Shown: positions 6,063 through 46,101 of the stretch, one piece after another
Position numbering within the stretch: the first letter of the stretch is position 1
How the letters are laid out: each line of letters opens with the position of its first letter
Source of the DNA: Bdellovibrionota bacterium
Lineage (GTDB): Bacteria > Bdellovibrionota_C > UBA2361 > JBGSMV01
Length of the DNA stretch: 46,164 nt
Assembly: GCA_044356455.1 (NCBI GenBank)
Contig: JBIKWF010000024.1
Coordinates: 1 to 46,164 of the forward strand
Reading direction: 5' to 3'
Notes under the pieces: model-generated
What the model was told of the DNA's origin: nothing
Database searches by the model: none
The model's input: the letters and a program-made list of their open reading frames with translations, nothing else
Program-made: the position numbers and the translations under genes

Positions 6063-6173
6063 GGAGTGTGTCTTGCAGAAAAATAGTTTTTTCAATTTGG
6101 ACACAATCCGTAGGGGGCCTGTCCCGCAACTAACACCACATGGCGTGATAGAAATAGTTACGGGACAGACACC
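6063..6173. mobile_element. Family B 111-bp MITE, diverged copy
   Basis: GGAGTGTGTC...TACGGGACAGACACC with TA on both sides. Same length and same internal tttggacacaatccgtaggggg core as the copies at 40365 and 45867. Confidence 0.85.
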
Positions 6174-8416
6174 TAGAAGTTCAACTGAATGGCTACGTAC
6201 GCATTTCTCCCCGGCTGCGTGAGCGAGAAGAAAGGCTCTTTGTAGTTTCTATCAAAGAGATTCTTCACTCCTGAAACAATTGAGGTCTTCCCAAAAGATT
6301 GCTCTGTCAGCAGGAAGTTAAGCTCGAAGTCGACGACCGTAAAGTCTGCCTGCTTCGGAAACTGATCTCTTCCTGCACTTACCGTATTATCCTGAGATGG
6401 CCCAACCGTTCTAAGATTAAAGCCGGTACGCACCCGATCAAGAATCGAGGTGTTCGCTTCAATCGTATAGAGCGCTCCGTAATTGAAGACCCAGCCCGTA
6501 ACATCAATCTTCTCTGATGCATTGGTCCAGGTACGGGAAACATTGGCGTAGACCTCGAGCGCGTCAAAGAACTTGGTTGAAGAACCAAACTCAACGCCGT
6601 AGAGGTTAAGGTCCCCCACGTTCGCATACTGATCCGTCAGGAAGCCCTGCACTACGCCAACAGGCGTCGTACCGATGTAGTCGTATACACGCGTCACGAA
6701 GGTAGCAAGCTCTAAGGCGGTGTCCCCGTCTTGATGTTTTGCGCCAACCTCTGCCGTATACGAACGCTCGGGATCGAGATCCGGATCTCCAATGATGCGT
6801 GTAGGAACGCCAAGATTTACAATTCCATCTTGATAGCGTTCTCCAAGGTCGGGAGCACGGAACCCAGTGGAAAGAGTTGAATAGAGGGAACTCTCTGTAT
6901 CGATCTTATAGACCGTACCGAGAGAACCACTAAGCCCTGCCACGGTATCATCTGAGTTCGTCACGTCATCATTGACCGTGAAGAAATCAAATCGAGCACC
7001 GGGAACGAACTCCCATGAGTCAAGCGACCAGTTATCCTGCGCATAGACGCCGCTTCGGAACTGATTGGCATCGGCGCGCTTTCTTTGGGTCACCTTCACA
7101 GGACCTGAAACAGGTCCAATACCGGCTTGTCCAATCGTTTGCGTTTCTTCCGTTTCAGGAAGATCGCTGAGATCATAACCGAGGTCCAAACCAACCGTAA
7201 TGGCGTGGTCTCCGAACTCAAAACGCGACTGTGTCTGGGACTCAAAGGTATCAACCTGATCATCGGTCTTGGTTCTTGAAGCACCTACCGTAGCGTTCGG
7301 ATTTACGAACGTGGGTGGTCCTGCAAATCCAGGACTAAAGCTTGGGTAGTAAGCAGTTTCTCGGTAGAACTCACGATCGATCTGCTGCCAATAAATCCCC
7401 GTCTTAAACTCCTTCCATGAACCACCCACATCATCCACGGTGAGTTCAACACCCGTCATGGTGCGTTGATACTTGGGGAAACTAAAGTACAAGGGGTTTG
7501 TCACGAAGGCCGCAGAACCTGGGGCTCCGAATACCGCGATGGGAAGAGTAATCTCATCTCGGGTAATCAGAACGTCGGAATTGCGTGTATTGTTGGCAAT
7601 GACACGGAGCTTCGTATCTTCGGTAAGATAGAAATCTGCCTTACCAAAGAGTCCCACCTGCCTAAAAGAACCACTTTGCGCGTCTTCATCATCTGGGAGA
7701 CGCGGCTCAAGCGAGCGGGTGTAACTACCACCAATAACCGCGGCATAACCTTGGTCACCAAAGTCGAGATAACCACCGACGCGGTTTCTGTCATATTGAC
7801 CATCGTAGCCGTAGCGCATCGCACCGCCGATTCCAAAGGAATCCCGGCGCGTGGGCTCACGAGAAATAACGTTCACCACGCCGCCAAAAGAATCAGTTCC
7901 GTAAAGAACGGAGGCGGGTCCGCGCAGAACTTCAATCTTCTCGATACCAATAGTGTCGTAAAGGCTTAGATTTCCGCCGCCGTACCCAATCCCCTGCCCG
8001 GCTTGGCGAATGCCATCAGAAAGGGTCAGCACGCGCTGCGCGCCAAGACCGCGGATGGTAAATCCTTCTTGCCAGTAGTTTGGATTCCCCTCACCTGGAG
8101 CGAGCCCTACGCCTGGAATACGGCGCAGGATATCATCAACGTCGGCATACTCCTGGTTCTCGATCTTTTCTGACGATACGGATGTAATTGCCTGAGGTAC
8201 CACAAGAGGATCTTGCTCTGCGCCACGCGCCGCAGTCACCACCACTTCAATCGCTTTCTTCTCATTCTTTGCATCGCCACTCTTTGCATCTATTGATGCA
8301 GTCTCTGCCGCAGGCGAATTTGTTTCAGCAGCCTCCGGAGCAGCATAGGCGCTGGAGCCGGAAAGCGAACCAACCACTACCGCAATCGCGCTAAGCGCTC
8401 GATATGAAATTTTCAT
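6173..8416 (-). CDS. TonB-dependent outer-membrane receptor
   Basis: Signal peptide MKISYRALSAIAVVVG..AYA (ATG 8416), TonB-box-like EVVVTA, plug IRGLG...IEKIEVLRGPASVLYG...GGVVN, FRAP, NLFDRNY, C-terminal Phe. Confidence 0.95.
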   Translation of the reverse strand: MKISYRALSAIAVVVGSLSGSSAYAAPEAAETNSPAAETASIDAKSGDAKNEKKAIEVVVTAARGAEQDPLVVPQAITSVSSEKIENQEYADVDDILRRIPGVGLAPGEGNPNYWQEGFTIRGLGAQRVLTLSDGIRQAGQGIGYGGGNLSLYDTIGIEKIEVLRGPASVLYGTDSFGGVVNVISREPTRRDSFGIGGAMRYGYDGQYDRNRVGGYLDFGDQGYAAVIGGSYTRSLEPRLPDDEDAQSGSFRQVGLFGKADFYLTEDTKLRVIANNTRNSDVLITRDEITLPIAVFGAPGSAAFVTNPLYFSFPKYQRTMTGVELTVDDVGGSWKEFKTGIYWQQIDREFYRETAYYPSFSPGFAGPPTFVNPNATVGASRTKTDDQVDTFESQTQSRFEFGDHAITVGLDLGYDLSDLPETEETQTIGQAGIGPVSGPVKVTQRKRADANQFRSGVYAQDNWSLDSWEFVPGARFDFFTVNDDVTNSDDTVAGLSGSLGTVYKIDTESSLYSTLSTGFRAPDLGERYQDGIVNLGVPTRIIGDPDLDPERSYTAEVGAKHQDGDTALELATFVTRVYDYIGTTPVGVVQGFLTDQYANVGDLNLYGVEFGSSTKFFDALEVYANVSRTWTNASEKIDVTGWVFNYGALYTIEANTSILDRVRTGFNLRTVGPSQDNTVSAGRDQFPKQADFTVVDFELNFLLTEQSFGKTSIVSGVKNLFDRNYKEPFFSLTQPGRNAYVAIQLNF

Positions 8417-33688: not shown

Positions 33689-34813
33689 TTACTGTTTATT
33701 GAGAATCCACCAGACTACCATGATAATGAGCGCCATCACCATGATGAGCCCAATACCAAGCCAGATTTTGTCCTCGAGAGAAGACATGGCGTCTTCTTCT
33801 GGCACACCAATCATGTTTCGACTCCCTGGATGAATATCGTATCCAGAGATGCGTGAATTTATCGCGGACGAATCCAAGGTCACGGTTTGTGCTACACCAA
33901 TTTTACCAAATGGCAGCCGTTCAGGAGCTCGCGGCATTGCAGAAACCGTTGCGCCTTCGTCTGTACCGGCCTCGGCTGCCCAGGGAAAGGATCTCGTTGC
34001 GTCTCTCGCCGCAGGAGGCGCGGCCTCTTCCTGAGGGAGGTCTACTTCCGTGCCTTCCACAAGCTCAGCGTGATACTCCATCGTGGGCTTGCCCTTCGAG
34101 CTTGACGCCACGTGGGAAGCAGATTGAGACGCAGATGGGACAGGACGAACTTCAAGGGCGCGGCGATTCGCGCCCACAATCATGTCGTTAAAAATGACGC
34201 GGTAATGATCCACACTAAGCTCATCTCGGTCAGCGAGGACCGAAGTGCGGGTCAAAGGCTCGCCGTTAAGCGCAACGGCCACTTCTCCAGAGATCGTGAA
34301 AGCGGCCACACTTTCGCCCCGACGCTCAATCACTAAAGACGGAAGATCGTGAATATCAACATCAAGCCGTAAATCGGCCTTCGCTCCGCCAATCACGAGC
34401 GCACGACCGAACTCGGGGACGGGATACTCTTGAAGAAAGCGGCCGCGCGAAAATACGATCAAAGACCGAATGCCCGTGGGGGCGCCTACGCGCGTGTCAT
34501 GGCTATCTGCGAATGCAAGCTCCAAGGCGATATCGCCAAGCTGCAAATAATCGCCCGGTTTTACAAGTTTCCATTCCTGGGGGGTAATTTTGCGCCCGTT
34601 GAGCCACGATCCGTTGGTGCTATCTTGATCAAGGAAAAACCACTGCTGACCAATACCGCGGAGTACTCCGTGGTGGCGCGAAACGGCATGGCTATTAAGC
34701 AACACGCCGCCCTCAGGCGGATCTCTGCCCAGCACTACTTCCTCAGAGTCAACGTGACCCAGGTCTATTCTGCCCTCTTGGGCCAGATGAATGAGCTGAA
34801 GCGGTCGTGCCAT
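33689..34813 (-). CDS. FHA-domain protein (FHA, second FHA-like domain, linker, C-terminal TM)
   Basis: LGR...AVSRHHG...DQDSTNGSWLNG...LVKPGDYLQLG is a canonical FHA. A second FHA-like unit follows (VALNGEPL...LADRDELSV), then a C-terminal hydrophobic helix. Confidence 0.88.
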   Translation of the reverse strand: MARPLQLIHLAQEGRIDLGHVDSEEVVLGRDPPEGGVLLNSHAVSRHHGVLRGIGQQWFFLDQDSTNGSWLNGRKITPQEWKLVKPGDYLQLGDIALELAFADSHDTRVGAPTGIRSLIVFSRGRFLQEYPVPEFGRALVIGGAKADLRLDVDIHDLPSLVIERRGESVAAFTISGEVAVALNGEPLTRTSVLADRDELSVDHYRVIFNDMIVGANRRALEVRPVPSASQSASHVASSSKGKPTMEYHAELVEGTEVDLPQEEAAPPAARDATRSFPWAAEAGTDEGATVSAMPRAPERLPFGKIGVAQTVTLDSSAINSRISGYDIHPGSRNMIGVPEEDAMSSLEDKIWLGIGLIMVMALIIMVVWWILNKQ

Positions 34814-34988: not shown

Positions 34989-35264
34989 TTAAGCTCGGCG
35001 TGAAAGCTTTTTATCAAGCTCGAGAAGAACGAAGGCTACCGCTTCAAAAAGTGGGCCGGGAATCTGCTCATCAATCTCAAGGGCGCTCAAAGATTTCGCC
35101 AGACCTGGATTTTCAATAACGGGAACTCCATAGCGCTTGGCAAGTTTTACGACTTCGTCAGCGCGAAGCTGCTCAGCCTTAAGGCTCACGGCAGGCGCTT
35201 CCATTGATTTGGTGTCGTACTCAAGACCAACAGCACGACGATAACGCGGGCGCCGAGAGCTCAT
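34989..35264 (-). CDS. Stand-alone FlhB/SctU C-terminal (post-cleavage, CC) domain protein
   Basis: AVGLEYD...APAVSLKA...A.EVVKLAKRYGVPVIENPGLAKSL..LEIDEQIPGPLFEAVAFVL matches FlhB-CC and FlhX/YlqH-type proteins. Confidence 0.9.
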   Translation of the reverse strand: MSSRRPRYRRAVGLEYDTKSMEAPAVSLKAEQLRADEVVKLAKRYGVPVIENPGLAKSLSALEIDEQIPGPLFEAVAFVLLELDKKLSRRA

Positions 35265-38200
35265 AGCTTCTCCTTCTCAACGGCCTTTTCCAGAGAAGAG
35301 AGCGGGAATGGAAGTACACTTGCAGCGGACTTAGAAGCCCTACTCTTTTCCGCTTCAGAGCTATCAATATGAGCAGCCAACCTGAGAGCACCGCCAGAAG
35401 TTGCAACCTTTTCCAACGCCTGCCGAATATGCTCCGTCATCGACCAAATCCGAAGCGGCTTTTCAAACAAGCGCACCCGCGGCGTAGGCTCGGAAAGGCT
35501 ATTTTTGAGACGCTCTTCCCAGGTACTCATATTAGCCACGTAGGCTAAAACGCGCGCACCTGAGTGTTTCTTAAGCACCTCCGCCACGAGCTCTTCTGCG
35601 TGCACCCCTACTCTATCAAGATCCATGACAAGCACTGCGGGTTCAGGCTGCATCTGACCAACGAGCTGCACCACGCGGTCGCGAGATACGGGAACCGAAA
35701 CGATGGTGCCAGGGGCTTCAACTGAAGCCCGCAGAGAAAATGCGATGGCGTGATCGATCTCAAACAGAACCACATTCGAAATCACCCGAACACGAGATTC
35801 AGGATCTCCCTGCGACAGCTCTGCTGTTTTTTGAACCACTGCCGGCAAATAAAGCGAAAAGGTAGTTCCCCGCCCAAGCTGACTCCTCGCGGTAATTACG
35901 CCATCGTGCTGTTTCATGATGGAATAGGCAGAAGAAAGTCCTAGCCCCGAGCCTCCAAAACCAAGGCCTGTTCGCGTATCGGCGTTTTTCGTCGTAAAGA
36001 AAGGTTCGAAGCACCTGGCCAGGCTTTCTGGCGTCATGCCGGCCCCGTTATCTTCAACCTCGACTCTCAAATACACCCCAGGAGCCAGCTCAGGATCCAC
36101 CTCTCCAGAGCGCACCCGTACTCGCTTTGCCACCACTTTCACCTTGCCATCAGATTTCCCCTCAAGAGCCTCCTTGGAGTTCATGAGAAGATTTGTCACT
36201 ACCTGCTGCATCTGAGAAGAATCTGCCACAACCTGGGGGCAGTCCTCAGCAAGGTCGTATTCAAGTGCGATGGGAGAACCAAGAATAGAACGATAGAGCT
36301 CACGCGACTCAAGCAGAAACTGTTTGAGGGTAAGGGTCTCGGGGGAATAACCGCCCTGCATGGAGAAACTGAAGAGCTGCTTCACTAGCGCTGCTCCGCG
36401 CGTAGAAGCCTCAGCAATCATCTTCGCCGCCGACACAATACGCGCATCCCCGGAGGCCTGCATCTCAATCAGAGAAGCCTGCCCCATCACTGCCTGCAAC
36501 AAATTGTTAAAATTATGCGCCACGCCTGACGCAAGAAGACCTGCCATGCGCATCTTGTCCGCATCCGCCATGCGCGCTTCAAATTTGCGGGCCAAAATGA
36601 CCGTGGCGATTTCTGTCGCCATGCTGTTAAGAAGCGGAAGCTTGCGCTGAACAAAAAATCCAGAGGGGACAGCGGGTTCAACTACAAGCACCCCAACTAC
36701 TTGCCCTAAGGAAACAAGTGGCACCACCACAATAGTGCCGCAGTTCAGGCGAGCGAGCACCTTTCCAAGATCGCCACACTCCACTTCGGTTCGAGGATCA
36801 ACCACCACCGGCGTGCGCTTGGCGATGGCTTGATCAAGAAAATCCCCTCGCACATTAAGTTCTATCTGGAGATCGATTAGGTGCTTTCTGATTCCTGGCC
36901 CGACGCCCCCTGTGCCCGTAAGGTGCGAACCGCGGTTGTTCATCACGCCAAGCCACATACGCTTACAGGCAATTTCTTCTTGAATGGCCGGGAACGCATG
37001 CTCCGCGACCTCTTTAAGCGTCATCTGCTTCGAGAGCTCATGGCTCAAGCGATACAGCGCAGAGAGAGAACTTGATTGGCGCTTCTCCGCGGCAAAGAGC
37101 TCAGCTTGCCGGGCCGCAAGCGCAATCTGCGAACAAGCTGCAGAAACTAAATCGTAATCTTCATTTGAGTAGCGGCTCTCATCTCTTCTAAAGAGAACCA
37201 TGACGCCAAGCACATGCTCTTCGAATACTAGAGGCATGATAATGGTCGCATGAAGTCCTTCGTGCTTGGCAAGTTCAACCGCGGCACGGGGTTCTTGCTG
37301 AATATCCTGGAGAAGCACGCCCTCCCTACGCTCAACGGCGTCATGTGCCAGTGTCTTCTTCCCAATGATCTTTCCAATCTCTTCTATATAGCGACTCGAC
37401 AAGCCCTCTGCGGCAACCACTTCGAGCTGCCCTGAGGAGGCATCAACAAGTCCGCCGAACCCACACTCGCTACTGGTCGCCTTGAGCAGCGCACGCAGCC
37501 CCTTAAGTGCAACCACACTCGGATCAAGATTGAGCTCAAGAGAACGAGCGACTTCATAGAGAGCCTCGATTCTCTTTCCTTGAGCCTTTGACTGCTCTTC
37601 AGCCAGCCGCTGGGCCGTAATATCAAGAATAAAGCCTTCCCAGCCCGAAGAACCAACAGTATCTCCGAGTACCGCGGTGGCAGGAAAACCACGCACCAAA
37701 AGCCAGCGTGGCTCCGCCGTCTTGGCATGAGCAACTTCTATTTGAAGCGAAAACTCGGAGGGTGGGCTCATGCGAGCCCTCTCAAATAACTCGTGCAAGT
37801 GCTGAGGACGCACGAGCCGTTGCCAAGAACGAGGGCGGGAGACTATCTCTTCTTGAGAAAGTCCGATGAGGTGGAGGGTATCTCCCTCGATACTAGAGAA
37901 AGAAAGGTCTTGCTCGGCTCGTACGATAAGAATTTCACCAAACTCCATGATGCGCCGATAGAGCGCATTCCTTTGGTCAAGGGATGTTCCCTCAATCGGC
38001 GTCGCTCGTTCGCGCACATCGTGTGTGTGTGCCCCTCCTATTGCGGTAGACTTTTGCCACAGCTCTTCCTGGGAGGTGCTCGCGTATAAAGGTTGTTCCT
38101 GAGGCTCATGGTCCGCTGGCTCAGAATCTTCAGCTTCGGGAACTTCAGCTGAAACATCTTGAGATACATAGTCTGCGGGGTCATCGTCGAGATGCTCACC

Positions 38201-38749
38201 GTCTTCAGACTCGCGAGCGGTGAAATCTGTATAAAAATCGTCCGGCACATGCTCGCGAGACGGCTGGGTTTCGGAAACGAGCGGTGCGGAACTCGCCACC
38301 GGCATCTGTCCGTTTAAGCGGCGCCAATGCAGCGCCAAGAGCTCCGCGGCAATCTCGAGAACCCCAAGGACTTCTGGACGAAGCCGCACAAACCTTGAGA
38401 ACGAGGCGCCCTGAATGACTGCAACAAAACTTCCCTCGAGGAACACAGGCACCAGCACATAAGAACGCACCCCCCATTCCAAGAGACGTTCTCTGACTAA
38501 AGGAGCGAGCTGCTGGCGCTCGATATCGCTCGCGACAAGTGGCATGCGTATCTCATGCCCGGCAATAGAAACACCTCCCGCGTCAATAGAAACTTCATCA
38601 GGGGCTGTCTCTGGGGATAAGATTCTTATCTGCTCAAGCTCAAGCTGCTGAGAGAGAAACGCGGCGAGGACACTACTGGCCTCTTCTTGGGTGGATGCAG
38701 CAGAGAGTTTTCTCCGCACCTCAGTCCATGTCGCGTTTGTTTCCGTCAC
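35261..38749 (-). CDS. Cytoplasmic hybrid histidine kinase (GAF-PAS-GAF-GAF-HisKA-HATPase-receiver-like)
   Basis: H-box LASGVAHNFNNLL, QVVTNLLMNSKEA, EDNGAGM, FEPFFTTK, GSGLGLS; GAF motifs (PLVFEEHVLGVM, PLVSLGQVVGVL); C-terminal VLVMD...EKP; no TM. Confidence 0.93.
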   Translation of the reverse strand: MTETNATWTEVRRKLSAASTQEEASSVLAAFLSQQLELEQIRILSPETAPDEVSIDAGGVSIAGHEIRMPLVASDIERQQLAPLVRERLLEWGVRSYVLVPVFLEGSFVAVIQGASFSRFVRLRPEVLGVLEIAAELLALHWRRLNGQMPVASSAPLVSETQPSREHVPDDFYTDFTARESEDGEHLDDDPADYVSQDVSAEVPEAEDSEPADHEPQEQPLYASTSQEELWQKSTAIGGAHTHDVRERATPIEGTSLDQRNALYRRIMEFGEILIVRAEQDLSFSSIEGDTLHLIGLSQEEIVSRPRSWQRLVRPQHLHELFERARMSPPSEFSLQIEVAHAKTAEPRWLLVRGFPATAVLGDTVGSSGWEGFILDITAQRLAEEQSKAQGKRIEALYEVARSLELNLDPSVVALKGLRALLKATSSECGFGGLVDASSGQLEVVAAEGLSSRYIEEIGKIIGKKTLAHDAVERREGVLLQDIQQEPRAAVELAKHEGLHATIIMPLVFEEHVLGVMVLFRRDESRYSNEDYDLVSAACSQIALAARQAELFAAEKRQSSSLSALYRLSHELSKQMTLKEVAEHAFPAIQEEIACKRMWLGVMNNRGSHLTGTGGVGPGIRKHLIDLQIELNVRGDFLDQAIAKRTPVVVDPRTEVECGDLGKVLARLNCGTIVVVPLVSLGQVVGVLVVEPAVPSGFFVQRKLPLLNSMATEIATVILARKFEARMADADKMRMAGLLASGVAHNFNNLLQAVMGQASLIEMQASGDARIVSAAKMIAEASTRGAALVKQLFSFSMQGGYSPETLTLKQFLLESRELYRSILGSPIALEYDLAEDCPQVVADSSQMQQVVTNLLMNSKEALEGKSDGKVKVVAKRVRVRSGEVDPELAPGVYLRVEVEDNGAGMTPESLARCFEPFFTTKNADTRTGLGFGGSGLGLSSAYSIMKQHDGVITARSQLGRGTTFSLYLPAVVQKTAELSQGDPESRVRVISNVVLFEIDHAIAFSLRASVEAPGTIVSVPVSRDRVVQLVGQMQPEPAVLVMDLDRVGVHAEELVAEVLKKHSGARVLAYVANMSTWEERLKNSLSEPTPRVRLFEKPLRIWSMTEHIRQALEKVATSGGALRLAAHIDSSEAEKSRASKSAASVLPFPLSSLEKAVEKEKL

Positions 38750-39564
38750 GTTGAATTCGTCTTCGATAAATCGTTCCGCTCTACAATCACCACGCGCGCG
38801 CTTCGCACTCGGCGCGCAAGGTCCTGCATCACAAGGGCCTCATGAAGCGAGCGTCTAGCTCCCTTCACGTGAGGATCTCCCTCGTCTTCTCGGTGTTCCC
38901 GGCGGACCTCATCGGCCGACATGGACAACTCCCGATAAAACGCGCGGCGATTGAGCAGGTACTCGAATACGCCCAAAACCATCAGCACTGCGGCGCTTGC
39001 GGCAAGCACTGAGATAAGCGCTGAGGCGAACCACTCTGCACGAACCTGACCCGCTACCGCGAGCCCGCCCATACTGAGCTGGGTAATGCCCTCTGCTACC
39101 ACTCGAGAAACAGTCAATCCCAAAACCCAAACAAGCAACGCGAGCTGCACCACCGTGCGCCAGCCTCTTGCAAGTCCCGACCAAATACGACCAAATCCTG
39201 AAACTGGATTGCATCGCTCGGGATTAAAACCAACGCCCTCAGGTTCGAACGTAACTCCAACTTGAAGCGCTTCCACTAGAATTGCGATTACCGCCCCGGC
39301 ACCTAAACTCCCGCCTACAAGAAGCACAAGCTCTGCAAGAAAGGACCGAGAACAGTACTCTAGATGGGAAGCCCCCTCGATAAAACAATAGTTTATCAAG
39401 TTAGCATTCCTTACCCAACTATACCGAATAAGGCCGAGAAGAGCCCCAGAAACTGCCATAAGTACAGCCACTTGCGATAGTAGCTGACTTTTGAGTACCT
39501 GCCCTTTTCGGCGTGCCTCTAAAACTCGCTTCGGGGTGGGGTGAAATCCCTTATCTTCTGCCAT
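38746..39564 (-). CDS. SctU/FlhB export switch protein, N-terminal part only (TM plus CN; no NPTH)
   Basis: EDK..HPTPKRVLEARRKGQVLKS, RCNPVSGFGRI, LSMSADEVRREHREDEGDPHVKGARR; ends SARVVIVERNDLSKTNST. Confidence 0.9.
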   Translation of the reverse strand: MAEDKGFHPTPKRVLEARRKGQVLKSQLLSQVAVLMAVSGALLGLIRYSWVRNANLINYCFIEGASHLEYCSRSFLAELVLLVGGSLGAGAVIAILVEALQVGVTFEPEGVGFNPERCNPVSGFGRIWSGLARGWRTVVQLALLVWVLGLTVSRVVAEGITQLSMGGLAVAGQVRAEWFASALISVLAASAAVLMVLGVFEYLLNRRAFYRELSMSADEVRREHREDEGDPHVKGARRSLHEALVMQDLARRVRSARVVIVERNDLSKTNST

Positions 39565-39573
39565 AGAGACCCC

Positions 39574-40386
39574 TTAGAAGGCTCCTAAGGCATGCGGCTG
39601 TGCTGCATGGAAGAGGCTTTGCTCCAAACCGAGACGCCACCACATGAGCGCCGCCGCAAAAAGGACTGCACTCTTTAGCAAAAAGCTTTCATGAGAGAAG
39701 CCACCTTGCGGAAGAAACTTTGCTACCAACGCAAGAGCCACCTCAATTACGGCACCGATTACCGCGAGAGGGAAGGCCGCGTTAGTTACGACATCGAGAC
39801 TTCCCAGCACGGCTCTGAACGTCTGCATCGCACCCTCTTGGAGTTTCGAAAGAGAAAGACCTCCGACCGGAAGTACGTCAAAACTTCGCGCGTACGCCTG
39901 CACCAACGCTTCCCCCAGTCCCAGCACAAGAATGGAGGCAAGGACAAGCGAACGAACTAACGTCACAAGGCCCGTTTCCTGCCGCTCAGTAAGCGGATCA
40001 AAAAACGTGGCCGTGGTCTGGCCGCGCACCCCGTCGACAATCTCCGCCCACATTGAAGCTGCGTTCACTACAAGTGCTGCGGGAAGGCCCAAAAAAAGTC
40101 CCAAAAGAAATTCTCCAAGAATCCCGCCCAAGCTAAGATCTTGAAAGGGGACCAAAGGGACTGAAACCGAGTCTCCCATGGCTGCGGCCTCCACACTTGA
40201 TGCCTGAGGGAGAACTCCGCCAAAAGCAAGTGCGAGTCCAACCGCGAACGAAACTCTAAGCACTGCGATTTGCGGCAATGAAGTAAACGGAACCATCGCC
40301 ACGAGCCCAAGGGCTCGGCTCGCTGCCATAGCGAGCCCAGGGAGCAATGGAGTAATCTCGCCTAGGAGTGTGTCCCGTAGAAACAT
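39574..40386 (-). CDS. SctT/FliR export gate protein; current start codon lies inside a MITE
   Basis: SRALG..AMVPF, GEFLLGLFLG, EIVDGVRGQTTATFFDP (SctT-like D..RG motif), about six TMs; lies between sctS and sctU. Confidence 0.85.
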   Translation of the reverse strand: MFLRDTLLGEITPLLPGLAMAASRALGLVAMVPFTSLPQIAVLRVSFAVGLALAFGGVLPQASSVEAAAMGDSVSVPLVPFQDLSLGGILGEFLLGLFLGLPAALVVNAASMWAEIVDGVRGQTTATFFDPLTERQETGLVTLVRSLVLASILVLGLGEALVQAYARSFDVLPVGGLSLSKLQEGAMQTFRAVLGSLDVVTNAAFPLAVIGAVIEVALALVAKFLPQGGFSHESFLLKSAVLFAAALMWWRLGLEQSLFHAAQPHALGAF

Positions 40387-40475
40387 AAATCCTCATTTTG
40401 GACACAATCCGTAGGGGGGCTGTCCCGTTGCCACCACAACATGTAGTGGTAGAATTTTTCTACGGGACAGACTCC
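40365..40475. mobile_element. Family B 111-bp MITE inserted in the 5' end of sctT
   Basis: 19-bp TIRs GGAGTGTGTCCCGTAGAAA / TTTCTACGGGACAGACTCC (one mismatch) with a TA duplication; nearly identical to 45867-45977. Confidence 0.92.
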
Positions 40476-40483
40476 TAAAAGTG

Positions 40484-40747
40484 TCATGGCATTTTCCCAA
40501 GGTACGAGATGCTCGCCAACATCTGCTGCAAAAAGCCCACGAGCTCCCCCCAGAACCAGCCACCACAAAGGGCAAAAACTCCGCAGACTGAGAGAAATCG
40601 CACGGCGAACCCAATGCTCTGCTCCTGAATCTGCGTCAGCGTTTGAAGGAGAGAAACAACAAAGCCAGCAACGCAGCTTGCAGCGAGCGGAATGCCGCTC
40701 ACCAGAGCAACCACAACAAACGCTTTGGTAAGATAGAGATCAAACAT
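40484..40747 (-). CDS. SctS/FliQ export gate protein
   Basis: 87 aa from ATG 40747; P.....AGFVVSLLQTLTQIQEQSIGFAVR motif. Confidence 0.92.
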   Translation of the reverse strand: MFDLYLTKAFVVVALVSGIPLAASCVAGFVVSLLQTLTQIQEQSIGFAVRFLSVCGVFALCGGWFWGELVGFLQQMLASISYLGKMP

Positions 40748-40754
40748 ACCACGC

Positions 40755-41462
40755 TCAGAGATAAGACTGCAGGAGCCCCTTCGCCAGAAGCAGCCAGCCG
40801 TCAGCCACGACAAAAAGAACTAGCTTCAAGGGCAGAGAAACCATGACAGGACTCACCATCATCATCCCCATTCCCACCAGCACATTCGCAACAATCAAGT
40901 CGATCACAAGAAACGGCAGCAGCAACACAAAACCCATGGCGAATGCTTCTTTTAGCTCCGTAAGCACAAACGCAGGAAGAAGAGCGCTAAGCGGAATACT
41001 CTCAGGCGCGGGAGCTTCCTTAAATTCCAAAGCGGAAGGCGCTTCTTCTTTAGGCTGCTCAGAACGCGCGTGTGTTTGGCGCGCCGCAAGATCAGTAAGA
41101 ACTCTAAGCTCACGACTACCACTATGCGCCAAGAGAAACGTACGAAAAGGAGCAAGCGCCGGGGTAAGCGCAGAGAAACCAGCCAAGGTTGGCGTCTCCA
41201 TCAAGCTTTGGAGCTTCTTCTCATCAAGAGCTTTTACACTCTCATCAAGCACTGGGCCCATGGTGTAAAGCGTGAGAGAAAGAGAAAGCGCCATAATCAC
41301 AAGCCCGCTCGGTACTTGCTGGGTACCAAGCGCACTCCTAAGAAGTCCAAGAACCACACTAATCTTCACGTAGGCAGTAAAGAGACCAAGAACTATTGGG
41401 ATAGCCGCAAAGGCCGCCGCAACAAGTACAAGCCATACGGGATGCATTGTTTGGCTTAACAT
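40755..41462 (-). CDS. SctR/FliP export gate protein (injectisome-type residues)
   Basis: TAYVKISVVLGLLRSALGTQQVP, LLPAFVLTELKEAF, LPFLVIDLIVANVL..MGMMMVSP..VSLPLKL.LFV..DGW; no FliP-type cleavable leader. Confidence 0.95.
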   Translation of the reverse strand: MLSQTMHPVWLVLVAAAFAAIPIVLGLFTAYVKISVVLGLLRSALGTQQVPSGLVIMALSLSLTLYTMGPVLDESVKALDEKKLQSLMETPTLAGFSALTPALAPFRTFLLAHSGSRELRVLTDLAARQTHARSEQPKEEAPSALEFKEAPAPESIPLSALLPAFVLTELKEAFAMGFVLLLPFLVIDLIVANVLVGMGMMMVSPVMVSLPLKLVLFVVADGWLLLAKGLLQSYL

Positions 41463-41908
41463 AAGACCATCCTTGGCTCCCCGCCGCTTTCAGACTGCGC
41501 CCTCTGCGTTTCTTCAAGGTTTTGCGGCGCTCGTATCGATGACTGACTTCGAACGTGCGTGCTCGAAAACTCCCCCAAAGAGCAAATGCCTGAGGGCGAG
41601 CAGGCAATCAGAAGTTCTCTCTGGTCCATGGTTACGAGCACAAGGCGCTGCCCCTTCTCAAGAGAAAGTGATTCTATCAACTTGAGCCTAGCCGAGGGAC
41701 GCCGAGAGTCTCTTTGCCTGCGAAGAACTACGCGCGAAAGCAGCCAGAAGACACCAAGCACAAAAAGACTTTTTCCGAAGGCCCCCAGATAATCAGAATC
41801 ACTGAGAGCCGCATCACTGAAAGCCTTCGACGCATCTTGTGCGAGCCCAAGCGTAGGGCACAGCAAGATTCCAAATAGGAGGCGCGAGAAATACAAAACG
41901 TTAGCCAC
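41456..41908 (-). CDS. FliO-like protein
   Basis: Signal/TM segment, TM, then RLKLIESLSLEKGQRLVLVTMDQRELLIACSPSGICSL (FliO cytoplasmic pattern). Directly upstream of sctR; GTG 41908 preferred. Confidence 0.8.
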   Translation of the reverse strand: MANVLYFSRLLFGILLCPTLGLAQDASKAFSDAALSDSDYLGAFGKSLFVLGVFWLLSRVVLRRQRDSRRPSARLKLIESLSLEKGQRLVLVTMDQRELLIACSPSGICSLGEFSSTHVRSQSSIRAPQNLEETQRAQSESGGEPRMVLC

Positions 41909-42968
41909 GACGATCTCCTTTCTGGACTGCCCCCACGTGCGCTCCCGCAACTTTCATTCCTTGACGCTCAATTGAGTTCTTTACTTCCCTGAGCGCACGC
42001 CCCATAAGGTGCTGCTCTGCGAGAGACTCAGGCGCAAGCGAAACCACCGTGCCCTTGTCGGGGAGGTGCGTAAGCTGAACGTTCAATTTGCGACCCTCAG
42101 AGGAAGAGAAGGAAAAAGAGACCCCTGCCCCACGCGAGTCGCTCCAACTCTCAAGCCCGGAGAGACGCTCCGCAAAGTCGCCTGCCTTAACCGAGCTTCC
42201 GTACCCTGCGCTACGCAGCTGCTCTTGAAGGGTGTTCTCTGGTTGAGGCTGCTGCCTTGAAGACTGGCCCGAGGAGTCTTGCGTCCCACCTTCGCCTTGA
42301 CGACTCAAGTGAACTAGGCCAGTTGCTACATTACTTGGATCAATTTCACGCTGCTTCACAGACTCTGGTTGCGTCGCCGAATCCGCCTGCTCAAGCCCCT
42401 GCTTCTCCTTGGTAGCTGCCACCGCTTCAGCACTCGAACGTGTATCCTTTTCAAGGTCCTCCCGGGTAGAAACCGCGGAAAGCTTGACCGTTCCTTCAAC
42501 TTTCTCTTTACCGCTTCGAGCGAGACGAACCGCACCCATAAGCTCATTCACTGCCTGTTCCTGAGAAACTTCCCCAGCCTGGGCCTTTCGTCTCACCAAG
42601 GTAGCGAGAGCTTCCCCAAGCTTGTCAAAGCGCACCTTCCCGGTGGCGAGCTCGGCGAGCGCCTTGCCTTGCGTCTCAGTGAGAACCGCAAGCTTACCCT
42701 GCGCTTGAGTGAGTTCTTTCTTCTCCTGCTGCACACGCTTTAATCCTTCCCGAAGGGCAAGCGACTGTAGCTTGGGGTCCTTTAGTTCACGTGAGTGTGC
42801 GAGGAACTTCTCGCACACGCTCTTAAAGCTGGTTTCTACGCGTTCAGTTTTTGCACGCGATTCCTGGACTTCTCGTCCGATCGCGCTGGCTCTTGTCTCT
42901 AGCCCCCGGAGCTGTATACGCTCGACATCGCGCCGAATCTCAACCCTCTCGAAATCTGAAATTTCCAT
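41901..42968 (-). CDS. Putative FliJ/SctO-like coiled coil fused to a FliK/SctP-like C-terminal domain
   Basis: About 150-aa coiled coil ending RFDKLGE...EVSQEQAVNELM, a Q/S-rich linker, and C-terminal GRKLNVQL...VVSLAPES......LREVKNSIERQGMKV. Confidence 0.6.
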   Translation of the reverse strand: MEISDFERVEIRRDVERIQLRGLETRASAIGREVQESRAKTERVETSFKSVCEKFLAHSRELKDPKLQSLALREGLKRVQQEKKELTQAQGKLAVLTETQGKALAELATGKVRFDKLGEALATLVRRKAQAGEVSQEQAVNELMGAVRLARSGKEKVEGTVKLSAVSTREDLEKDTRSSAEAVAATKEKQGLEQADSATQPESVKQREIDPSNVATGLVHLSRQGEGGTQDSSGQSSRQQPQPENTLQEQLRSAGYGSSVKAGDFAERLSGLESWSDSRGAGVSFSFSSSEGRKLNVQLTHLPDKGTVVSLAPESLAEQHLMGRALREVKNSIERQGMKVAGAHVGAVQKGDRRG

Positions 42969-42980
42969 TTGCCGCTCTCG

Positions 42981-43331
42981 TTATGGTTGGCTTTGCAGTT
43001 TACGAAGAGTTCCAAGCAAGCTCTCTGCGACCTTCGATACGAGCTCTACTCGCATGTTAAATTGACCGGCTTTAATTTGATAAAGCAGCAGCTCTCGTGC
43101 ATCAAAGGCGCCGCCCCCAAGAGCTTTCTGCTGAAGGGCGCCTAGTTCTTTGTGGAGATTGTTCGAGAAGGGGTCTTTGGAGCTTGGAGATGCGGCAATC
43201 TTCTCGAACAGCTCCCTAAAGCCCTGAGCAGAACCTGAATGTGGCGTGGTAGGCTTTGGGCCAGGGGCCTGTATTCCCTGTGACCCTGAAAAGGATTGAG
43301 ACACGGCAAGTGGTTGAATTGATGAGGTCAT
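42981..43331 (-). CDS. SctI (EscI/YscI/HrpB2-like) inner-rod-type protein
   Basis: 116 aa from ATG 43331 (AGGGG upstream); disordered N-terminus and C-terminal ELLLYQIKAGQFNMRVELVSKVAESLLGTLRKLQSQ. Confidence 0.6.
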   Translation of the reverse strand: MTSSIQPLAVSQSFSGSQGIQAPGPKPTTPHSGSAQGFRELFEKIAASPSSKDPFSNNLHKELGALQQKALGGGAFDARELLLYQIKAGQFNMRVELVSKVAESLLGTLRKLQSQP

Positions 43332-43430
43332 GAGCGCCCCTTTTCCCTGTGTTGAGCTTCTTCGCGCTACCCTCATCGGAAATTTGAGCCAAAAGTTTCC
43401 TGTGGGAGAGAAAATATTTCATTTTCTCTA

Positions 43431-43703: not shown

Positions 43704-44219
43704 ATGGTGCGTGTGAAAGCTGAATTAACTGCCGAAATTGCTGGGATGATTTTCCTTGTTCGAGGTAGACGCGTCATGCTTGACTCCGATCTCGCGCGTC
43801 TTTACGGGGTAGGGACAAACCAAGTCAATCGTGCGGTGCTCCGGAATCCTGAAAGATTTCCCGAAGACTTCTATTTTCAATTGAGTTATCAAGAAGTTGC
43901 AAACTTGAAGTGCCAAATTGGCACTTCAAGTTCTTGGGGTGGCAGGCGGCGATCCTTGCCATTTGCGTTTACTGAACAGGGCGTAGCGATGCTTTCGAGC
44001 GTACTACGTAGCAGGGAAGCTGCGACCATCAATGTTCAAGTGATGCGAGCCTTTGTTTCAATGCGTGAAGCTCTGTCGACACACCTAGAGCTATCGGGGA
44101 AATTGGAACAGCTTGAGTATCGACTCGGCAAGCATGATGACGAAATTGCAGCGCTGTTTGAGGCAATCAAGCAACTCATGCTTCCCATAAGTCACAAAAA
44201 ACGCCGCATAGGCTTCTAA
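43704..44219 (+). CDS. ORF6N-domain (KilA-N-like) DNA-binding protein
   Basis: RGRRVMLDSDLARLYGV...RNPERFPEDFYFQL...FAFTEQGVAMLSSVLRS...RRIGF. Confidence 0.93.
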   Translation: MVRVKAELTAEIAGMIFLVRGRRVMLDSDLARLYGVGTNQVNRAVLRNPERFPEDFYFQLSYQEVANLKCQIGTSSSWGGRRRSLPFAFTEQGVAMLSSVLRSREAATINVQVMRAFVSMREALSTHLELSGKLEQLEYRLGKHDDEIAALFEAIKQLMLPISHKKRRIGF

Positions 44220-45566: not shown

Positions 45567-46101
45567 ATGAGCACCGGTGCGACCGCAGGGAGCATCCGCT
45601 GGCTCAATTTGTTCTCTTCCGTATTTCTAACTTTGGTTTGGTTTCTAAGCAACTTTTCTGCCGATTTGTCGATTAGGGTTTCAAGGGTTAGGCCGCGGAG
45701 ACACGGAGACCGCGGAGGGGGGAGATAGAATCGAGATATTGCTCAGCTCCGTGGCTTAGCATAACTGCTAGTTATCCTGAACATTCGCAAACAAAATCCT
45801 GTCAACACCTAGAAAGTTACAAATTTGCCGGCGAACACTCCGCGGTCTCCGTGTCTCCGCGACCAAGGAGTGTGTCCCGTAGAAACATAAATCTTCATTT
45901 TGGACACAATCCGTGGGTGGGCTGTCCCGTTGCCACCACAACATGTAGTGGTCGGAACTTTCTACGGGACAGACTCCTACCCCTTGTAACCCCAATCAAC
46001 AAATCGGCAGAAGAGTTCCTAAGAAACCATGCCAAAGTTTGAGGTTCGGAAGAGAGCAAATTGAGCCTGCGGATGCTCCCTGCGTTTGCACTGCCGCTCA
46101 T
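45567..46101. repeat. Long imperfect inverted duplication (arms 45567-45717 and 45838-46101, right arm interrupted by a MITE)
   Basis: Hand alignment of 45567-45692 with the reverse complement of 45976-46101 gives about 20 mismatches in 126 nt and no gaps. The inner cgcggagacacggagaccgcggag pairs exactly with ctccgcggtctccgtgtctccgcg. Confidence 0.9.
45867..45977. mobile_element. Family B 111-bp MITE
   Basis: GGAGTGTGTCCCGTAGAAA...TTTCTACGGGACAGACTCC, a few substitutions from the 40365 copy. Right flank TA, left flank AA. Confidence 0.92.

Follow-up and report, generated by a model that had tools for sequence, protein, structure and literature searches.

Type III secretion systems (T3SS) of the non-flagellar (NF) kind that lack a secretin have been described in the Myxococcales (Abby and Rocha 2012, PMC3459982, in the part of that article available), and the accessible text on the Myxococcus system called T3SS* depicts it as lacking secretin, needle and translocon and as acting together with Kil at contacts with prey (PMC12075869). 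The co-occurrence of Kil and T3SS* is apparently restricted to the Cystobacterineae, according to the available portion of a 2025 review (PMC12428579), and an excerpt of another article carries a claim for the Bradymonadia (PMC11509652). Here we describe an operon on the 46,164-nucleotide contig JBIKWF010000024.1 of an uncultured Bdellovibrionota bacterium (assembly GCA_044356455.1), the whole of which we call the window. We have high confidence that the operon encodes an NF export gate with a genuine functional split in its SctU, the two halves of which flank a histidine kinase gene. On balance we favour the view that it forms the inner-membrane export gate of a secretin-less NF type III system with partners on two further contigs, C7 and C112, of the same genome (G000; 4.7 Mb, 93% complete, the window being contig C127 and other parts lying on other contigs). 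A search of the phylum yielded 96 genomes of at least 85% completeness, all of one class, presumably GTDB class UBA2361; those relatives that have names carry the label Bdellovibrionota or Bdellovibrionales.

All nine ORFs (open reading frames) of the operon lie on the minus strand and are tightly packed, and the gene order that an earlier note had read from the letters alone (sctI, a sctO–sctP fusion, fliO, sctR, sctS, sctT, sctU-N, kinase, sctU-C) is borne out by the ORFs, Pfam and profile comparisons. FliO (41456..41908) matches PF04347 at E 2e-9. SctR (40755..41462; Pfam FliP family, NCBIfam) contains the motifs TAYVKI, VANVL and MMVSP and has no signal peptide, unlike the FliP of the same genome; SctS (40484..40747) and SctT (39574..40386) are recognized by Pfam (Bac_export_3 and Bac_export_1, respectively) and NCBIfam, and the translated SctT carries DGVRGQT..FFDP, so that the residues on which the note had based its injectisome-type call are real. 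For every gate gene the NCBIfam non-flagellar model outscores the flagellar one (in bits, R 191.7/177.5 versus 168.1 for FliP; S 57.7 versus 51.2; T 58.1 versus 49.2; U 145.2 versus 116.8), with most of these scores under the cut-offs and the subfamily model NF009438 alone exceeding its own.

The first gene of the operon (42981..43331), which the note had called inner-rod-like, encodes a 116-aa protein that is SctI-like by three routes and occurs in 39 related loci. A profile of its family finds MxiI as the best match in the PDB (E 0.013); the same profile ranks a Myxococcales-type ORF in SctI position (3e-6) and AscI (7e-4) above 10,499 decoy ORFs; and ESM Atlas agrees with the call. The operon thereby has the inner rod or adaptor of an NF T3SS. 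A Foldseek search with the structural model (predicted local distance difference, pLDDT, 72; predicted TM-score 0.42) returned no matches. The second gene (41901..42968; 355 aa) had been proposed as a fliJ/fliK-like fusion. Its position and its architecture, a SctO/FliJ-like coiled-coil N-part, a disordered linker and a T3S4/FliK-C-like domain, fit a sctO–sctP fusion, but support from sequence and fold is weak, and the assignment is made partly by position. FliK matches in Pfam were obtained for 5 of 21 orthologues (best E 5e-4), and one SctO ranked second among decoys for the N-part (E 0.13). The model of the C-domain (pLDDT 88) has FliK-C/T3S4 topology and pairs with PscP in Foldseek at probability 0.98 and E 0.18, with a VIA Z of 5.1 that unrelated folds equal; a PDB sequence search with this domain gave repeat artefacts only. 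In other orders of the class, the ORF at this place is about 150 aa long and corresponds to the O part only.

What most distinguishes the operon is its SctU, which the earlier note had listed in two parts without giving the split any weight. To our knowledge, all FlhB and SctU proteins are taken to cleave themselves at NPTH. Whether it is the cut itself or the two-chain state that matters for these proteins is still argued. In the window the protein is encoded as two ORFs, a 272-aa N-part (38746..39564) comprising the membrane helices and the first cytoplasmic strand, and a 91-aa, FlhB-CC-like C-part (34989..35264), which Pfam Bac_export_2 covers at positions 2-256 and 262-332, respectively. 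Aligned to the FlhB of the same genome, the N-part ends with the strand preceding the Asn of NPTH and the C-part begins at the residues following PTH, the motif itself being missing. Between the two halves, overlapping each by 4 bases, is the ORF of a cytoplasmic hybrid histidine kinase (35261..38749; 1162 aa; Pfam GAF/HisKA/HATPase) with GAF/PAS-like sensors, HisKA (His745), HATPase and an atypical receiver (Asp1043), and with no clear membrane helix; its H-box is conserved in 38 of 40 loci, and the other two are cut.

This arrangement is conserved across the class. The SctU N-part was found in 41 of 42 related loci, the remaining genome having it on another contig, and in all 41 the protein is split and NPTH is missing. 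The kinase gene follows the N-part in 40 loci and is in turn followed by the C-part in 37; of the three misses, two are contig ends and one is unexplained. The split is no artefact of selection, because 22 of the loci were picked by SctR rather than SctU. SctU is whole in all NF reference and Myxococcales-type loci examined, the latter being of the short-locus kind. The single chain with NPTH of the canonical injectisome has no counterpart in the operon. Can the halves come together? A complex prediction for SctU-N with SctU-C scored 0.57 against 0.00 for the best control, where the mark is reached by 116 of 157 solved pairs and 2 of 215 mismatched ones, and where 18 of the 157 and both mismatches lie at or below 0.60. 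With 78% contact agreement, a partner pLDDT of 68 and a score that may reflect likeness to solved FlhB/SctU domains, the prediction lends weak support to an association of the two chains.

Precedents for a free C-part exist. The available part of PMC3040844 describes an engineered Xanthomonas HrcU-C that functions in trans and cites Helicobacter HP1575 as an FlhB-C spare part; these free forms can act in trans, and the operon's C-part has the same free form. The two pieces in the window correspond to those that canonical FlhB/SctU (PF01312) yields upon self-cleavage and to free FlhB-C proteins (HP1575/FlhX, TIGR00789). Unlike the canonical proteins, however, the operon has no NPTH, no full-length copy to serve its gate, and a kinase between the halves, whereas HP1575 sits beside a full FlhB. 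The genome also has a stand-alone FlhX-like FlhB-C gene (C176:12516-12779), distinct from the SctU C-part of the window. Our literature search, which did not cover subscription papers or preprint supplements, found no published natural split at the NPTH site and no account of these systems. A lineage that encodes the two SctU chains separately represents a natural test of whether the cut or the two-chain state is what counts.

The gate is NF in ancestry. In a tree of concatenated SctR, SctS, SctT and SctU (54 rows, 814 columns), in which support is given as SH-aLRT (Shimodaira–Hasegawa-like approximate likelihood ratio test) only and branches are long, flagellar and NF gates are separated at 100, with the window type on the NF side. 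The earlier note had called the module divergent, and a divergent NF gate is borne out. A second gate type of these genomes, encoded with Tad genes, also falls on the NF side; six of its rows are without SctT. Window-type gates form one clade (98 under a mixture model from which the Tad rows were left out) and stand outside the Myxococcales short-locus clade (100) and the proteobacterial injectisome clade (99-100); the Myxococcales rows are short-locus ones, and loci L159, L173 and L187 are labelled Myxococcales because their SctV is 60-65% identical to that of M. xanthus. The note had reckoned with SctR, SctS and SctT falling inside flagellar clades in a genome with a full flagellar set elsewhere. 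That set is present, but approximately unbiased (AU) tests on 36 rows, 18 of the 54 having been removed beforehand as long or redundant, reject trees that group the operon's gate with the flagellar one of the same lineage (p 2.9e-6).

The genome holds three FHIPEP, three SctJ/FliF and three SctR/FliP genes and two T3SS-type ATPases. One set is a full flagellum with motor, switch, fliOPQR, a full-length flhB with NPTH, flhA, rod and rings, and because the genome has this complete flagellum with its own FliOPQR and FlhAB, the operon is no degenerate flagellum. There are 24 flagellin-domain matches over the cut-off; some 22 scattered flagellin-domain genes encoding proteins of 260-640 aa make an unusually large set. 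The gate neither groups with FliPQR/FlhB nor depends on the company of rod genes: FHIPEP matches, in three score classes, occur in all 61 genomes examined, 7 of which have no score at the FlhA level, and the five of these that were tested (92-97% complete) have no rod gene and all keep the operon.

The second set is joined to Tad genes: cpaE, cpaB, cpaF, tadB, tadC, sctV and a kinase-like gene stand together in 12 of the 12 loci that were fetched, and the operon continues with FHA genes, sctJ, sctQ, sctR, sctS, sctT, the N-part of SctU without a C-part, an ORF of 85 aa and a TPR gene. It is contiguous in genomes G047, G045 and G053 (loci L119+L139, L129+L141 and L130+L142, with Ser/Thr kinase and FHA genes) and split over C184, C24 and C95 in G000. 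In the loci fetched, no SctU-C, SctI or ATPase accompanies it and no Tad secretin was found.

The third set comprises the window operon and what remains. The note had supposed the missing partners to be elsewhere or lost: the window contig has no match for rod, hook, flagellin, motor, secretin, SctJ, SctV or ATPase in genome profile searches, and NF sctJ, sctQ, sctV, sctL and sctN lie on other contigs. On C7 a cluster runs sigma factor, sctJ, sctQ, a gene for a 108-aa protein, sctV and TPR, an order seen in 8 of 8 loci fetched (with sctQ detected in one, by a single query); C112 holds a sctL–sctN pair. Pairing the window gate with the Tad-linked SctV was considered and dropped, since that SctV shares a contiguous operon with the other gate (C95). 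Because the C95 gate belongs to the Tad-fused operon, the SctV/SctJ cluster of C7 is left for the window gate, and we regard the pairing of the gate with the C7 and C112 genes as likely. By profile scores and trees (the ATPase tree excepted), the genome thus has the SctR, S, T, U and V, SctJ, SctQ and SctN of an NF T3SS. A T3SS secretin is absent: the only two secretins in the genome are in type II secretion and type IVa pilus operons, five relatives have two each, no dedicated SctC is present, and none was found in the fetched T3SS and Tad loci.

A sequence motif points in the same direction. The pattern GGAAACTT-N12-TCCGA has 58 matches in the genome with a spacer of 12, whereas six other spacer lengths give 9-25, and it precedes the window operon (43373..43401, minus strand, a putative alternative-sigma promoter), sctL and, on C7, both the sigma gene and the gene for the 108-aa protein, and not the Tad-fused genes. 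None of 22 flagellins (0 of 22) has the motif in front, and on that ground a flagellar regulon of the FliA type was rejected. Of the matches, 45 are outside long ORFs; they head, among others, a second Tad operon (cpaE, cpaB, cpaF, tadB, tadC and a tadG-like gene; L264:480-8863 on C19), a gene for a pilin-like protein and the ORF of a pesticin-like lysozyme (L267:352-1056, on C37), which is a candidate for lytic cargo. Among relatives the motif precedes 7 of 39 sctI genes versus 0.6 expected from shuffled sequence, one control set, of sctU-C regions, giving 3 of 38. The motif supports, short of proof, the pairing of the operon with the C7 and C112 genes in G000.

How might such a machine work? 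We propose that SctR5S4T1, SctU-N and SctV would assemble inside the SctJ ring, that SctN, SctL, SctO and SctQ would power export, and that SctI, perhaps with the related 108-aa protein, would make up a short rod in the periplasm. The two halves of SctU, synthesized apart, would associate into a two-chain state equal to the product of NPTH self-cleavage. A gate that is born 'cleaved' could not switch by cutting, and therefore any switching would rest on the supply or binding of SctU-C and on the fused SctP domain. The co-translated kinase may sense a cytoplasmic cue and gate expression or activity. Cargo would be delivered to the periplasm and would pass the outer membrane with the help of another structure, most likely a Tad pilus, upon contact with prey or host cells, in the manner of the Myxococcus T3SS*/Kil pair. 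A role in predation would follow by analogy with Myxococcus, and contact-dependent attack together with Tad is a tentative proposal on which we are nearly evenly divided and lean slightly to the negative.

Several observations weigh against this picture. No SctF, SctW (both sought by Pfam), periplasmic SctD or effector was identified; in no genome that we have seen is the operon adjacent to the sigma–J–Q–V cluster or to sctL–sctN; and 20 sctL–sctN neighbourhoods gave no tie to either NF system. The second Tad operon was not found near the sigma cluster in 8 relatives. Among relatives the motif stands before none of 8 sigma genes, 1 of 8 genes for the 108-aa protein and 3 of 19 sctL regions, and the roughly 45 motif-headed loci of G000 are of mixed kind, with transposases among them. 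The 41 split SctU genes count as one event, because all the loci descend from one ancestor, and locus L081 has adjacent sctU halves without a kinase, so the kinase is dispensable for the split. The accessible parts of PMC10469934 and PMC10196010 report that M. xanthus T3SS(2), equally needle-less, does not act in killing, and needle-less systems therefore need not kill.

This last point invites the strongest alternative, a housekeeping or developmental periplasmic exporter resembling Myxococcus T3SS(2) that, under kinase and sigma control and independently of prey, assembles some structure of the envelope or supplies the cell's own periplasm with wall enzymes. The near-universal retention of the operon, including in 1.8-Mb genomes and in the non-flagellated ones, the breadth of the putative regulon, the lack of a secretin and the dispensability of T3SS(2) for killing, as far as those accessible parts go, are all consistent with such an exporter. 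The sister system, however, is Tad-fused in every one of the 12 loci, and the loci behind the motif include a Tad operon as well as genes for a pilin-like protein and a pesticin-like lysozyme. We consider the exporter unlikely, if the least so among the alternatives.

Could the two NF sets instead be one composite machine, with SctN, SctI and SctU-C shared and the free SctU-C serving both gates? The host order has a single NF ATPase (two T3SS-type matches in 25 of 27 genomes, counting G000, one of them FliI) and one stand-alone sctL–sctN pair; the Tad gate has SctU-N only, with no SctU-C or SctI beside it; and the two gates group together at 97-99 in the SctRSTU trees. Yet that grouping may be due to long-branch attraction, both sets come with R, S, T, U-N, V, J and Q of their own, and other orders of the class have two stand-alone NF sctL–sctN pairs (L244-L258), which leaves a composite machine rather improbable in our judgement.

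The earlier note had seen in the operon a hybrid, on account of FliO, and a surviving intermediate between flagellum and injectisome, which would then be older than the Myxococcales systems. The argument from FliO fails. FliO is part of both M. xanthus NF systems, as stated in the accessible part of PMC12403147, and the Myxococcales-type locus L159 (sctI, sctJ, sctQ, a 130-aa ORF, R, S, T, U, V) holds the same sctI..fliO-R-S-T-U set. The 42 related loci yield FliO in 6 cases, and four of these 6 loci had served as seeds of the search profile; in the operon FliO is an ancestral leftover and no mark of a new hybrid. For an intermediate one can still adduce that FliO, a domain like that of FliK and a sigma factor related to FliA are retained. 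In a SctV tree of 80 rows, moreover, each of the two NF lineages forms a clade of its own (100), and both lie outside a group (94) containing the two Myxococcales paralogues, identified by homologue search, and the Chlamydia-like and proteobacterial SctV, so that this tree leans toward the deepest NF position, a placement that AU tests of the gate do not reject (p 0.32). But two sister relationships, one with the Myxococcales (p 0.45) and the other with proteobacterial injectisomes (p 0.57), are equally unrejected on these long branches, another NF lineage (L161, L166) branches deeper in the SctRSTU trees, and the split SctU and the fused O-P protein are derived traits; the NF ATPase tree, with its distant outgroup, does not resolve placement. 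An ancient intermediate is therefore, in our view, a doubtful reading.

Equally doubtful is the fullest version of the story, in which the class would carry two secretin-less type III systems that branch before those of the Myxococcales, beside a true flagellum, and would use them together with Tad pili to attack prey; one would be the system joined to the Tad operon, and the other would have a pre-cut SctU, whose free C-part and kinase would take the place of self-cleavage as the switch, and a cryptic needle-like subunit. Were that early-branching, Tad-linked account true, the passage from flagellum to injectisome would have its nearest living representation in these systems. An accessory or decaying flagellar gate whose sctU was broken by insertion of the kinase is almost certainly wrong: a full flagellum, the existence of free FlhB-C genes of the FlhX/HP1575 type, fast evolution and an element inserted in sctT might suggest it, but it is refuted by the AU rejection of flagellar kinship, by halves that are intact and coupled across the class (with a separate FlhX-like ORF on C176) and by retention of the operon where rod genes are missing.

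To return to the gate of a secretin-less NF system, its nearest described counterpart is the Myxococcales short locus, or T3SS(2). Neither has a secretin, a SctF match or a known translocon (no search aimed at the last was made here), both have SctI, FliO (patchy among our relatives) and the order R-S-T-U, and the operon's SctI-family profile matches the ORF before sctJ in L159, L173 and L187. In the short locus, by contrast, SctU is whole with NPTH or NPVH and sctJ, sctQ and sctV are in the same locus (3 of 3), whereas here SctU is split around a kinase, the genes are scattered, SctV and RSTU form separate clades and the hosts, Bdellovibrionota with a full flagellum, are not non-flagellated Cystobacterineae. 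With T3SS*/Kil of M. xanthus, as the accessible accounts present it, there are in common a probably needle-less NF system, Tad genes in the genome and FHA proteins and kinases nearby; unlike T3SS*, one NF system here is fused to a Tad operon, no Tad secretin was found for it in the loci fetched, and SctV stands apart from both Myxococcales paralogues. The proteobacterial injectisomes (Ysc, SPI-1, Hrp1, Hrp2, Rhc) share NF-type R, S, T and U scores, SctI, and O and P before the gate, but the system of the operon has no SctC, SctF, SctW or periplasmic SctD matches and its gate falls outside their clade. In other words, the operon works, we suggest, like the Myxococcales systems, in which its membership is unproven; a secretin-less NF system with FliO is already known, and the split switch is new to the literature searched. 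Two NF systems with Tad genes across another class widen the candidates for contact-dependent predation beyond the myxobacteria, and two deep NF lineages are added for rooting the evolution of injectisomes.

The 108-aa protein of the C7 cluster (L026:13865-14191), encoded between sctQ and sctV, is a candidate second axial subunit of SctI/SctF-like type. Its family is akin to the operon's SctI family (HHalign 87%) and has a conserved C-terminal motif, also present in the unrelated NF locus L161, that may resemble needle C-termini; a PDB sequence search with the family gave nothing under E 0.5 and did not confirm this likeness.

Following sctU-C, and outside the interval 34989..43331 to which the earlier note referred, the window encodes an FHA protein (33689..34813, minus strand; PF00498, PF16697) with a C-terminal membrane anchor that resembles the cytoplasmic part of SctD and has no periplasmic part. 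Such a gene holds this position in 26 of 41 related loci, with the tail anchor in 25 of the 26. Upstream of the operon is an ORF6N-domain gene (43704-44219), and similar genes recur near other T3SS clusters. Finally, a 109-bp miniature inverted-repeat element (40366..40474) with 15-bp inverted ends sits in the fourth codon of sctT, where it interrupts the sctS/sctT overlap and supplies an in-frame ATG, thereby keeping the SctT frame; it is absent from the related loci. The genome has 67 full-length copies of it, 44 of them flanked by CTAG/CTAG, which points to a target duplication of CTAG type, and further copies occur in the window near 45873-45979 and 6092-6180.

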